Shown here: piece by piece, positions 3,398 through 4,891 of the stretch | Layout of the letters: each line of letters opens with the position of its first letter | How positions within the stretch are numbered: the first letter of the stretch is position 1 | Virus record (IMG/VR): IMGVR_UViG_2585427789_000012 | Reading direction: 5' to 3' (one strand) | Length of the DNA stretch: 4,891 bases | From: a virus | Lineage: Duplodnaviria > Heunggongvirae > Uroviricota > Caudoviricetes | Made by a program: the position numbers and the translations under genes | The notes under the pieces: generated by a model | The model's input: only the letters and a program-made list of their open reading frames with translations | Told to the model about the DNA's origin: nothing | The model's database searches: none

Positions 3398-3602
3398 TCA
3401 GGATGGCTTTAGCCTCATTCAGCGCCATATCAGCACTAAATTGCATAAGAGCCAGTGAGTGAGGAACGAAAGCCCCGGTATATTCTGTTTCGCTGGTGGC
3501 GTGCTTATGCGCCTTGTCTGCGATAACAGAAATATCAATCAGCGCGTGCATCAGCGTTTTGATGGCTTCGGCGGCTGCGTCCGGTGTGGTTTTATTGTGC
3601 AT
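3363..3602 (-). CDS. Hypothetical protein, 79 aa
   Basis: ATG at 3602 with SD-like GGGGGA 6-7 nt upstream; it overlaps the stop of the upstream gene by 11 nt. The C-terminal codons run through the G8 homopolymer. Confidence 0.6.
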   Translation of the reverse strand: MHNKTTPDAAAEAIKTLMHALIDISVIADKAHKHATSETEYTGAFVPHSLALMQFSADMALNEAKAILIADCENGGGYA

Positions 3603-3798
3603 AGGTTTCCCCCTGGCGAATACGGGCGGCGAATACCATCACGCAGCCATCAGGAGATTGCTGACGCGCTTCCTGTTCGCTGGTGGCCTCAATGGTAATC
3701 ACGCGCGGTTGTGCCGTGCTCAGGGCGATAAAACGCCAGATGTATTTATTCAGGTTGTACGAGTCCCGCCCTTGCGGGTGTCTGGTATAATTTCTCAT
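3592..3798 (-). CDS. Small protein, 68 aa, first gene of the leftward operon; possibly Icd-like (host cell-division inhibitor family)
   Basis: ATG at 3798 with SD GAGG at 5-nt spacing. It is the C-terminal 68 codons of the 382-aa track ORF (MRNYTRHPQGRDSYNLNKYIWRFIALSTAQPRVITIEATSEQEARQQSPDGCVMVFAARIRQGETYAQ). The Icd-like label is from recalled annotations of P4-like prophages and is not verified. Confidence 0.55.
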   Translation of the reverse strand: MRNYTRHPQGRDSYNLNKYIWRFIALSTAQPRVITIEATSEQEARQQSPDGCVMVFAARIRQGETYAQ

Positions 3799-3905
3799 AG
3801 CTGCCTCGATACTTCTGCTATCGTTGGTGGTTAGACGCCCTGCATGTGTTGCGAGCACTGCGGGGCGTTGCTTAATTTGAGTGACAAAACTCAAACTGTG
3901 CGCAC

Positions 3906-3935
3906 AGATTAAAATCATGTGTGCGCACATGTCAA
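3906..3935 (-). promoter_or_regulatory. Candidate leftward early promoter (-35 TTGACA at 3935-3930; -10 TAATCT at 3911-3906, 18-bp spacer)
   Basis: Perfect -35 hexamer on the minus strand with a moderate -10; predicted start near 3899, giving a ~100-nt leader before the ATG at 3798. Confidence 0.4.
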
Positions 3936-3938
3936 TAC

Positions 3939-3967
3939 TTAACATCTCATTTTTTTTGCTGTATTGT
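3939..3967 (+). promoter_or_regulatory. Candidate rightward promoter (-35 TTAACA at 3939-3944; -10 TATTGT at 3962-3967, 17-bp spacer)
   Basis: Sigma70-like hexamers read by eye, positioned divergently from the leftward promoter and upstream of the ATG at 4004. Confidence 0.3.
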
Positions 3968-4003
3968 GTGCGCCCATAAAGTCCATTTAAGTGAGGTGCA
4001 TCA

Positions 4004-4201
4004 ATGTCTAGCGGTAACACAAACAACAAATCAGCAAAGAAAAATATTCGATTCCCACATGAGCTTATAGATGGGATTGATGCCAGCGTTGAACAAGAAA
4101 AATTAACTAATCCTAGTGCTAATTTTTCCGCATGGGTCTTAGATGCCTGTGGACGCAAATTAAAATATGAACAGCGCCGGAAGGCCAAAGAATCAGAATA
4201 A
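4004..4201 (+). CDS. Small DNA-binding protein, 65 aa; putative ribbon-helix-helix (CopG/Arc/ParD-like) regulator
   Basis: SD AGGT 6 nt upstream of the ATG. KKNIRFPHELIDGIDASVEQEKLTNPSANFSAWVLDA fits the RHH pattern of an N-terminal beta-strand followed by two helices. It is divergent from the early operon and next to the palindromic operators. Confidence 0.5.
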   Translation: MSSGNTNNKSAKKNIRFPHELIDGIDASVEQEKLTNPSANFSAWVLDACGRKLKYEQRRKAKESE

Positions 4202-4243
4202 TCACTATCAGCGCCGTGGTGTGAGTAACTACGGCGCATTGCT

Positions 4244-4432
4244 ATGCAGGGCAACACAATGACCGATAAAGAATTGACCAAAACATTATCACCGACACGG
4301 AAAAGACGGCGCAGAAAGATAGAGCATGAATCAGAAAGATTCGCACCTTGTTCGTTTGCTCTTGAGAAATTCCTTAAAGAGCGCAGGAAAAAACTCTCGT
4401 TGCAAACCTTGGAACGAACCAAATCTGACTGA
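4244..4432 (+). CDS. Hypothetical very basic small protein, 62 aa (or 57 aa from the ATG at 4259)
   Basis: ORF containing TRKRRRRK; weak SD for the 4244 start, AGGG 9 nt upstream of the 4259 start. A terminator follows. Coding status is uncertain. Confidence 0.3.
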   Translation: MQGNTMTDKELTKTLSPTRKRRRRKIEHESERFAPCSFALEKFLKERRKKLSLQTLERTKSD

Positions 4433-4498
4433 TCACATTGCCCACCAGCCGCAAATGTGGCATTGTTGGTGATGCTTTTGTTTTCCCTTGTTCCCACT

Positions 4499-4527
4499 GG
4501 CGACCCTTTTGCGGTCGCCTTTGTTTT
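4499..4527 (+). terminator. Rho-independent terminator (stem GGCGACC/GGTCGCC, 7-nt loop, TTTGTTTT tail)
   Basis: Perfect 7-bp GC-rich stem at 4499-4505 and 4513-4519, followed by a U-tract at 4520-4527. A weaker bulged hairpin with a U-rich tail precedes it at 4443-4484. The reverse complement has no U-tract, so it is + strand specific. Confidence 0.65.
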
Positions 4528-4565
4528 GCCTGTTATCCGGCAATAGTGGCGCTTCACCACACGGT

Positions 4566-4574
4566 TGATATAAT
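4566..4574 (+). promoter_or_regulatory. Extended -10 promoter element TGATATAAT
   Basis: Perfect TATAAT at 4569-4574 with TG at 4566-4567; no good -35, which extended -10 promoters can lack. Predicted start near 4581. Confidence 0.4.
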
Positions 4575-4580
4575 TCCCCT

Positions 4581-4651
4581 GCACTGATCCATTTTTTTCG
4601 CAGCAGGTTAATTGTTCAGAAAGGCGGTTCCTTATCGGGGCCGCTTTTTTT
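4581..4651 (+). ncRNA. Candidate ~70-nt small RNA (from the extended -10 promoter to an intrinsic terminator)
   Basis: Predicted start near 4581. Terminator hairpin GCGGTTCC (4624-4631), loop TTATC, GGGGCCGC (4637-4644; two G-U pairs), then T7 (4645-4651). No ORF of note lies between them. Confidence 0.3.
4624..4651 (+). terminator. Rho-independent terminator (8-bp stem, 5-nt loop, T7 tail)
   Basis: Stem GCGGTTCC/GGGGCCGC with two wobble pairs, followed by TTTTTTT at 4645-4651. Confidence 0.55.
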
Positions 4652-4891
4652 ATGCCTGAAAATACCCGATAACATGGCTTTTTAGTTTCACCAGGACGAA
4701 CGAAGCCCCGCCCCTGTTCGGGCGTATATCCAGTATTCATGGTTAGATCTCTGTGTTAGTGGATGGGTGGCGGCGGTGCGCCGCCAGCCTGATTAGTGAA
4801 CTGCCTCGCGGCTGTCCTTCCATGCCAGAACTTCGGATAAAGACCAGCCAACGGAACGACCGCCGAGTTTACGCCGTGATGGGAATTGTCC

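Follow-up and report, generated by a model that had tools for sequence, protein, structure and literature searches.

Background

The immI region of phage P22 is governed by Mnt and Arc, ribbon-helix-helix (RHH) repressors that act at the divergent promoters Pant and Pmnt, and in RHH proteins alternate residues of the strand contact the bases. The immI region of phages P1 and P7 comprises c4 RNA, icd and ant, with control exerted in P1 by the C4 antisense RNA. The Stl proteins are large helix-turn-helix repressors, and repression is lifted when a helper-phage protein binds them. For P4, one account (PMC10111431, citing Forti et al. 1999) places a constitutive promoter inside eta, from which Kil is made as a truncated product, and describes full-length Eta as translated only from an upstream late promoter and coupled to the alpA homologue, with translation of the read-through transcript preventing its termination. 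For the phage-inducible chromosomal islands (PICIs) of Gram-negative bacteria, the founding paper (PMC6092414) recognised AlpA as the activator and called the global repressor 'unclear', and no paper assigning a global-repressor role in these islands was found in the literature. The present analysis concerns a stretch of 4,891 nucleotides (IMG/VR record IMGVR_UViG_2585427789_000012; the whole stretch is hereafter called the window) that belongs to a capsid-forming PICI (cf-PICI), and in particular the two small rightward genes at positions 4004-4432.

The first of these genes encodes a 65-aa protein of the YlcI/YnfO (DUF3950) family, which very probably is the operator-binding regulator of the early operon transcribed leftward from the same intergenic region. 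The explanation preferred here for the locus as a whole, towards which the evidence inclines slightly, is that the YlcI/YnfO protein would repress the leftward operon of the island, that the second gene (orf57) would be a passenger, and that both are accompanied on the opposite strand by a long frame resembling the eta frame of P4. The evidence for each of these parts is presented below.

Results and discussion

The YlcI/YnfO protein and its putative operators

The 65-aa protein belongs to the YlcI/YnfO (DUF3950) family, since it scores 59.0 bits against the curated Hidden Markov Model (HMM) NF041551 of NCBIfam (cutoff 30) and 28.3 bits against Pfam PF13132 (cutoff 25), and each of the 34 homologues in the alignment has a PF13132 hit at E<=10 (best 6.3e-11). 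A total of 115 homologues with identities of 49-98% were identified across the Enterobacterales, and the gene is conserved at 50-80% identity between genera. The family alignment consists of an invariant R-F-P, a helix, a short loop, the motif N-F-S-x-W-V and a second helix, the predicted DNA-reading strand of the window protein being K12-K13-N14-I15-R16-F17-P18. A literature search for YlcI, YnfO and DUF3950 retrieved no functional study, nor was any paper found that pairs 'phage satellite' with 'ribbon-helix-helix'.

The intergenic region upstream of the gene carries the palindrome TGTGCGCACA at 3897-3906 and 3920-3929 and a copy with one mismatch at 3967-3976. These three sites, the putative operators O1, O2 and O3, fall within 80 bp, and no further match is present in the window, for the whole of which 0.29 would be expected. 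They coincide with two promoters that stand back to back, as follows from the positions of their -35 and -10 hexamers on the two strands. The spacer of the leftward promoter, which is analogous to PLE of P4, consists almost wholly of O2, and O1 comes directly after its -10, while sites equivalent to O3 (tataGTGT...ACAC) are present in related loci. To judge from these positions, O1 and O2 would be placed to occlude the leftward promoter and O3 to occlude the promoter of the regulator gene itself.

A pattern scan of one genome per species yielded 45 loci of the gene outside Escherichia, which range from Serratia, Klebsiella, Pectobacterium and Xenorhabdus to Gilliamella, Orbus and a Pasteurellaceae taxon. 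In all cases in which flanking genes could be detected, the gene is divergent from an operon of icd-like, DUF4222 and primase genes, and the integrase gene, often together with alpA, converges on it. The intergenic layout is constant in the 45 loci, being composed of O1, about 24 bp, O2, a TTGAC -35 and an O3 on the rightward -10; a TTGAC-like hexamer stands beside O2 in 43 of them, and the remaining two (L002 and L003) have TTGATT. The operator core varies between loci and its copies within one locus agree. Strands with the signature KKN are paired with the operator GTGCGCAC, TTKG with GGTGCAYAWACAC, (Y/F)KG with GTGTTTAAACAC, KKH with GTGTGAACCCAC or GTGTGTACCCAC (O2 sites) and RKD with TGTCCGYACA.

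This covariation was examined in loci that are related to one another and whose operators were anchored by hand. Operator distance correlated with the six residues before RFP (r=0.67-0.68, p=2e-4), and the partial correlation was 0.63 with the rest of the protein held constant and 0.68 with the first leftward gene held constant (p=2e-4 in each case), whereas the rest of the protein gave a partial r of 0.10 and the Icd-like protein, the product of the first leftward gene, an r of 0.05 and a partial r of -0.08. A natural swap experiment is provided by three Xenorhabdus loci (L016, L031 and L035), in which the Icd-like proteins are near-identical, the operator cores are GTTTAAAC, GTGCGCAC and GTGAACCCAC and the strand signatures are GYKG, DKKN and AKKH, respectively. 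The variable positions of the strand flank the invariant Arg, as predicted, because it is alternate strand residues that contact bases in RHH proteins. The comparative evidence thus points to strand residues that read the palindromic operator in the manner of an RHH protein, and it is the strongest evidence for the operator-binding role of the 65-aa protein. The original prediction for this segment had described two open reading frames (ORFs), at 4004-4201 (65 aa) and 4244-4432 (62 aa, with the run TRKRRRRK), and had named the product of the former as the candidate repressor of the early operon; both ORFs are present, and the candidacy is strengthened by the palindromes on the divergent promoters, the synteny in 45 loci and the operator covariation.

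The same prediction had seen an RHH pattern in the 65-aa protein, and for this the outcome is mixed. The AlphaFold2 (AF2) model, with a mean predicted local distance difference test (pLDDT) score of 76, has an extended, non-helical segment at residues 14-17 and helices at 18-35 and 41-64, which might fit the pattern; the model is of a monomer, and an RHH strand forms only in the dimer. Profile, PDB and Foldseek searches gave at most weak support. None of the 34 family members matched an established RHH family significantly, whether by sequence or by profile, the sub-threshold Pfam hits being HicB_lk_antitox (best 0.0021; 7 of the 34), Arc (0.0092), NikA (0.026), CopG_antitoxin (0.13) and RHH_1 (0.24). 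A profile search of PDB sequences had no match at E<=10, Foldseek against PDB and BFVD returned nothing useful, and hhalign placed KNIRFPHELID on FNLRWPREVLD of Arc over 17 columns with a probability of 5% (with an Arc sequence entered by hand). An RHH fold is, on these models and profiles, weakly supported and suggestive.

Members of the family also occur in phages. The lambda homologue is 64 aa long and 43% identical, with RNIRFP and NFSAWV kept (MSTKNRTRRTTTRNIRFPNQMIEQIN...NFSAWVIEAC); it lies on the minus strand (L132 200-394, the complement of about 48109-48303 of J02459), adjoins cos and has no annotation there. Homologues are carried by 153 phage records, mostly of lambdoid and Stx phages. 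Because the lambda and lambdoid members adjoin cos, repression is not considered to be the function of the family at large; cross-talk between the lambda homologue and the satellite repressor is conceivable. The best match in the phage database, at 71% identity, is in LR881103.1 ('Escherichia phage vB_KppS-Ant', 16,548 bp; H21), which was deposited as an induced prophage and whose record size of 16.5 kb suggests a packaged cf-PICI, not a phage.

A proposed swappable immunity cassette

Comparison of 80 E. coli-type loci from IMG/VR revealed nucleotide homology to the window in the leader (3800-3872), a break at about 3873 and renewed homology from about 4172. The gap spans the operators and most of the repressor gene, homology being regained in the last 30 nt of the gene and in orf57. 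Among the loci, at least 10 regulator alleles occupy this gap, all of them paired with an operator of their own and situated upstream of the same orf57. These alleles start with MATxxxNxKS and have a hypervariable strand before R-[FIV]-P, and one alternative allele of 59 aa aligns to the family profile with 96% probability. The pattern suggests that the operators and the DNA-reading part of the gene are exchanged together as a swappable immunity cassette; lambdoid immunity regions show an equal mosaic pattern.

Sequence from the 801-bp region 3800-4600 was found in 1575 of 5426 complete E. coli genomes, at up to 5 places per genome, and a match over its full length, that is, to the exact immunity allele of the window, in 33 E. 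coli genomes. Many E. coli strains therefore carry several islands, presumably of differing immunity types.

The leader RNA and the rightward terminators

The leader of the leftward operon folds into two predicted hairpins, the second of which sits just before the icd-like ATG, separated by the single-stranded segment CUAACCACCAA at 3824-3834 (also written CUAACCAC). In an alignment of 24 sequences (A4), 11 of the 15 predicted pairs have compensatory double changes. An Rfam search of the whole window (cmscan, E<=1) gave no match to CI, C4 or isrK, the only hits being chance microRNA-like ones on the iterons. A protein-based layer of immunity is plausible because P4-type CI, C4 or isrK RNA is undetected, and, because the leader hairpins are conserved with compensatory changes, an RNA layer may exist alongside it, in which case the leader could be an immunity or processing RNA of an uncatalogued type. 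The suggestion that immunity here follows a logic other than the RNA-based one of P4 thus gains from the former result and has to accommodate the latter.

The hairpin between the two rightward genes keeps its stem base GCGCC/GGCGC in E. coli alleles. The terminator of the rightward transcript, which had been predicted at 4499-4527, was recovered by the scan with its hairpin and T-run; it is kept in the relatives inspected, in which the alignment, judged by eye, shows the compensatory stems GGCGACC/GGTCGCC and GGCCACC/GGTGGCC. The terminator-like hairpin farther downstream directly follows orf57 in some alleles. A GC-rich hairpin, GGGTGGCGGCG/CGCCGCCAGCC, is situated at 4765-4789, between the stop of the alpA-like gene and the start of the long minus-strand frame.

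The second gene, orf57

The start of the second gene is probably ATG 4259, giving a product of 57 aa, because none of the 61 distinct DNA variants lacks this codon, whereas ATG 4244 is replaced by TTA in 9 of them. The 57-aa product has an isoelectric point of 10.5 and 18 Lys and Arg residues, and begins with a disordered Arg/Lys-rich segment, continues with the invariant core ERFAPCxFxLExFLKE and ends in a long helix. Fifty of the variants encode 57 aa, ten encode 59 aa and one encodes 50 aa, the sole indel being of 6 nt, and alleles with identities as low as 54% retain an open frame, of 57-65 aa. There are 43 close homologues, with two alternative C-termini, and all the named ones are from Escherichia or Shigella. 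The product matches phrog_21027 (E=1.5e-13), for which the function label in PHROGs is 'unknown', and neither Pfam nor NCBIfam yielded a match; the earlier statement that this ORF has no recognisable family does not hold entirely, given the phrog_21027 match and the close homologues.

More distant relatives are not evident. A profile search of 1.84 billion representatives gave 9 matches, one of which is a 1141-aa protein matched over 18-residue stretches, and orf57 was not found when every ORF of the 45 loci outside Escherichia was searched with an HMM; most of those loci have a terminator, or else different cargo, immediately downstream of the repressor gene. This downstream slot seems to serve for cargo, and orf57 is probably an Escherichia-only passenger gene. 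In Xenorhabdus and Morganella (L035, approximately 6223-6564, and L037, approximately 6229-6570), the slot contains a 113-aa ORF with a CxCx(6)CxH motif resembling a SWIM zinc finger. From its composition, nucleic-acid binding by the orf57 product may be guessed. A boxB-like target for the Arg-rich N-terminus was considered and dropped, the hairpin at 4211-4237 being unlike boxB.

Whether the segment is coding or a long 3' untranslated region (UTR), between which the original prediction had wavered, was assessed from codon statistics. Third positions are variable in 28 of 57 columns of orf57 as against 26 of 114 other positions (p=5e-4), whereas periodicity is absent from flanking segments that share the minus-strand frame but are not covered by a plus-strand ORF (23/41 vs 49/82, p=0.72). 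The overlapping minus-strand frame shares the wobble position of orf57, because of which synonymous and nonsynonymous counts cannot separate the strands; the plus-strand signal is nevertheless separable, since the flanks are without periodicity and, for 12 of 15 allele pairs, the plus frame shows the more conservative replacements. The orf57 block is, moreover, the best-conserved DNA of the region across cassette types. The invariant ATG 4259 and the third-position excess limited to the borders of orf57 favour coding, and translation of orf57 is, on this comparative evidence, reasonably likely.

The antisense stop-free frame

The original prediction overlooked that both genes are embedded antisense in a stop-free, eta-like frame. 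This frame runs through orf57, the repressor gene, the operators, the promoters, the terminators and the leader, and ends in frame as the icd-like gene (ATG 3798, 68 aa, 3592-3798). The short first gene of the leftward operon thus forms the 3' portion of a longer ORF in the same frame, which begins just after alpA/vis, and inspection of the P4 sequence showed matching geometry there. BLASTP of the Icd-like protein against the P4 Kil/Eta ORF found no similarity (E=10).

The other two minus-strand frames contain 19 and 21 stops over 3802-4740, and none of 2000 shuffles gave an open frame. In 28 of 32 loci, the longest minus-strand stop-free frame through the repressor start exceeds 150 codons and reaches 195 nt or more antisense of the repressor start; such frames are typically 300-500 codons long, even where the sequence is unrelated. 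The lambda copy of the repressor gene is also open in the antisense frame, so that openness within this gene alone is uninformative; what counts is that the non-coding stretches are open and that the feature recurs across loci. No match in Pfam, Phage_ASH included, was obtained for the 382-aa product, whereas the corresponding products of L127 and L131 do have Phage_ASH. As the frame is open while the sequence is unrelated and the product is without a Pfam domain, selection appears to act against stops and not for a protein. The 117-aa Icd-like start (3945) and the pseudogene at 4197-4740, both called by the Prokaryotic Genome Annotation Pipeline (PGAP), are probably by-products of the open frame.

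Genomic setting

An identical locus in E. coli E300010 (L001) belongs to a cf-PICI with a P4-like left operon, annotated in the order integrase, alpA-like helix-turn-helix gene, the window module, primase, SSB and ProQ/FinO, followed by the packaging and capsid genes (HK97 capsid, protease, portal, connector, HNH, TerS and TerL); no tail genes are annotated within the island in L001. This set of integrase, alpA, primase, HK97 capsid, protease, portal, connector, TerS and TerL genes without a tail is that of a cf-PICI; the element is not P4, despite the P4-like left operon. Identical cf-PICI core genes were reported in a 2026 survey, with a YlcI/YnfO family protein, for which no role is given, and Icd among the accessory genes (PMC13612085).

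The leftward operon is on the minus strand and comprises the icd-like gene, three small ORFs, the DUF4222 gene and a D5/P4-type primase gene (795-2609), beyond which lies a putative iteron-rich origin; the 65-aa gene and orf57 are transcribed away from it. The 3' end of the alpA-like gene, also on the minus strand, enters from the right edge of the window, with its stop at 4793-4795. An AT-rich segment at 540-790, between the primase gene and the next gene, is densely occupied by GGTGAACAG(T) iterons in both orientations, and this array is presumably the replication origin. PADLOC assigned none of the 65-aa protein, the orf57 product and the Icd-like protein to a defence system. The coordinates of the features are collected in Table 1.

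Table 1. Positions of the regulatory and coding features in the window
Feature	Coordinates	Strand	Remarks
YlcI/YnfO (DUF3950) gene, 65 aa	4004-4201	+	ATG start; GAGGTG Shine-Dalgarno; curated HMM matches
Putative operator O1, CTGTGCGCACAG	3896-3907	.	Just downstream of the leftward -10, at +1; equivalent site in 45 loci
Putative operator O2, TGTGCGCACA	3920-3929	.	In the leftward promoter spacer; abuts its -35
Putative operator O3, TGTGCGCCCA, one mismatch	3967-3976	.	Overlaps the rightward -10/+1; proposed autoregulation site
Leftward early promoter	3908-3935	-	TTGACA (3935-3930), 16-nt spacer, TTTAAT (3913-3908); read from sequence
Repressor-gene promoter	3939-3967	+	TTAACA, 17 nt, TATTGT; 9/12 consensus matches in scan
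Leader RNA of the leftward operon	3807-3868	-	Hairpins 3835-3868 and 3807-3823
Hairpin GCGCCGTGGT-N7-ACTACGGCGC, no T-run	4211-4237	+	Between the two genes
orf57, probably 57 aa (62-aa ORF if from 4244)	4259-4432	+	Small basic protein; phrog_21027 match
Intrinsic terminator of the rightward transcript (hairpin and T-run)	4499-4528	+	Found by scan
Terminator-like hairpin with T8	4623-4653	+	Faces the alpA-like gene; read from sequence; missed by terminator scan
Stop-free eta-like frame, 382 codons from ATG	3592-4740	-	Starts 52 nt after the alpA-like stop

Proposed mechanism and alternative explanations

In the mechanism proposed for the island, the repressor would be made from its own rightward promoter as a small RHH-type protein that binds O1-O3, with its specificity set by the residues just before the invariant I-R-F-P. 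Occupancy of O1 and O2 in the quiescent island would keep the replication operon of icd-like, DUF4222 and primase genes off, and the weaker O3 would provide negative autoregulation. The basic, largely helical 57-aa peptide of orf57 would be encoded on the same transcript, which would extend to the terminator at 4499-4528. Helper-phage induction is reported to activate alpA (PMC6092414, PMC11773190), and in the island it would thus lead to leftward transcripts from the alpA side. Being translated through the open frame, these would evade Rho as well as the weak reverse-oriented hairpins, arrive at the icd-primase operon regardless of the state of the repressor, bypassing the repressed internal promoter, and collide head-on with transcription of the repressor gene.

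Several observations weigh against this explanation. The -10 of the leftward promoter, TTTAAT, is without the conserved A at position 2, because of which the consensus scan made no call there. The lambdoid members of the family adjoin cos, away from the immunity regions. The covariation test rests on related loci with hand-anchored operators. As regards orf57, the AF2 model is of low confidence (pLDDT 69), with a disordered basic N-terminus and one long helix and no globular fold, the Shine-Dalgarno sequence is weak (AGGG), synonymous and nonsynonymous counts are equal in the plus and minus frames, and the wobble-only comparison (9 vs 4) is not significant.

The position of the lambda and Stx phage homologues next to cos and far from immunity regions, together with the weak support for an RHH fold, would suit an explanation in which AlpA, the Icd-like protein or a host protein is the factor that binds the palindromes and YlcI/YnfO has an unrelated role, for example one in packaging or associated with cos; PHROGs, moreover, labels the Icd-like family 'transcriptional repressor'. 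That label, however, probably derives from an old 'cI gene product' annotation of a P4 ORF, and it is with the residues before IRFP (partial r 0.63-0.68), not with the Icd-like protein, that the type of operator varies. Furthermore, Rahnella and Klebsiella loci that have the operator of the window lack a detectable alpA homologue and their integrase, where found, is about 23% identical, while the repressor gene and the operators are exchanged as one block, which makes this alternative improbable. If the 65-aa protein does bind the operators, it might still do so as an activator or a bifunctional switch, in the manner of Cro, P2 Cox or P22 Arc, and not as a maintenance repressor. P22 Arc is an RHH protein that acts in lytic development at a similar divergent promoter pair, and site geometry by itself leaves the sign of regulation at the rightward promoter unfixed. 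The positions of O2 in the spacer and of O1 at +1 of the leftward promoter are nevertheless ones that occlude RNA polymerase, and the gene, which points away from the replication and packaging operon and ends at a terminator of its own, resembles those of maintenance repressors in this respect; a role in activation is considered still less probable than binding of the palindromes by another protein.

The remaining alternatives concern the DNA downstream of the repressor gene. The segment 4202-4498 may be a 3' UTR that extends rightward transcription and counters alpA-side read-through by antisense RNA and interference, with orf57 untranslated. Apart from the weak Shine-Dalgarno sequence, this would agree with the lack of a family of known function and of a globular fold, with the absence of orf57 from the loci examined outside Escherichia, in the majority of which a terminator comes immediately after the repressor gene, and with codon statistics confounded by the overlapping minus-strand frame. 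It does not account as well for an invariant ATG 4259, an ORF kept open in divergent alleles, a third-position excess that ends at the orf57 borders while the minus-strand frame goes on, the more conservative plus-frame replacements and the strong conservation of the block across cassette types, and it is judged unlikely, though it is the most serious of the alternatives. It is also possible to regard the 382-aa minus-strand ORF as a real gene, encoding an Eta/Bro-network protein, of which orf57 would be the opposite-strand shadow. In favour of this, no stop interrupts the frame in the window or in most of the related loci that were examined, gene finders call long minus-strand ORFs in L127 and L131 that carry a Phage_ASH domain, PGAP places a pseudogene at 4197-4740, and in P4 Eta is a real translated product (PMC10111431). 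The 382-aa product, on the other hand, is without a Pfam match and is rich in Cys, Ser, Leu and Arg across promoter, terminator and antisense segments, and the frame outside the plus-strand ORFs has no codon periodicity. In other genera it is open with unrelated sequence, which indicates stop avoidance, while the plus-strand repressor gene is conserved, and a minus-strand gene of this kind is thus as improbable as the binding of the palindromes by AlpA, the Icd-like protein or a host protein.

Implications

A YlcI/YnfO repressor of the leftward operon, if correct, would supply the missing half of the switch of Gram-negative islands and a function for DUF3950. The immunity types could then predict which islands coexist, and the loci would constitute a natural series of matched protein and operator pairs for the study of RHH specificity. 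The antisense embedding would be a clean case of selection for the transit of ribosomes rather than for a protein. A broader reading, which we regard as doubtful when taken in its entirety, is that YlcI/YnfO proteins would be the master repressors of many Gram-negative PICIs, cf-PICIs and P4-like satellites, with many immunity types, each consisting of a hypervariable DNA-reading strand and its matching operators. In the same broader reading, the antisense embedding would form a convergent-transcription toggle, in which helper-induced read-through bypasses the promoter and extinguishes repressor synthesis, and the lambda-like homologue near cos might feed into the same switch.

Comparison with known systems

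The gene belongs to one family with YlcI and YnfO of E. coli and lambda by the curated HMM and differs from the lambdoid copies in its location, those copies adjoining cos. With the Stl/Rpr repressors of the Staphylococcus aureus pathogenicity islands (SaPIs) and Gram-positive PICIs (PMC6092414), it shares a position divergent from, and the proposed silencing of, the replication and packaging operon near the integrase side, but the protein is of 65 aa and RHH-like by prediction, unlike Stl. As in the immI region of P1 and P7, an icd-like gene comes first in the controlled operon and is preceded by a structured leader; unlike P1, no Rfam C4 was detected here, and a protein and candidate operators are present.

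The likeness to P22 Mnt and Arc lies in a small protein (53-82 aa) with an N-terminal DNA-reading strand, encoded divergently from the silenced operon, and in operators over back-to-back promoters that serve repression and autoregulation, which for this locus are predicted. The local motif KNIRFPHELID also resembles FNLRWPREVLD of Arc, although homology is not significant (hhalign probability 5%, no PDB sequence match). There are three separate palindromes here as against one operator per protein in P22, the target is an operon of an icd-like protein and primase and not an antirepressor, and the gene lies antisense inside a read-through frame whose translation is proposed.

The left operon of P4 likewise has an alpA/vis-like gene, a long in-frame ORF with an internal early promoter, a short first gene and primase, and its frame upstream of the internal promoter is stop-free. 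It differs in that CI, C4 or isrK RNA is undetected in the window and the Icd-like protein is not similar to P4 Kil/Eta; moreover, P4 has no opposite-strand gene and its early promoter is constitutive, whereas in the window the operators and the divergent repressor gene occupy that space. Thus, the closest functional analogue of this locus is Mnt/Arc of P22, and its closest architectural analogue is the left operon of P4.

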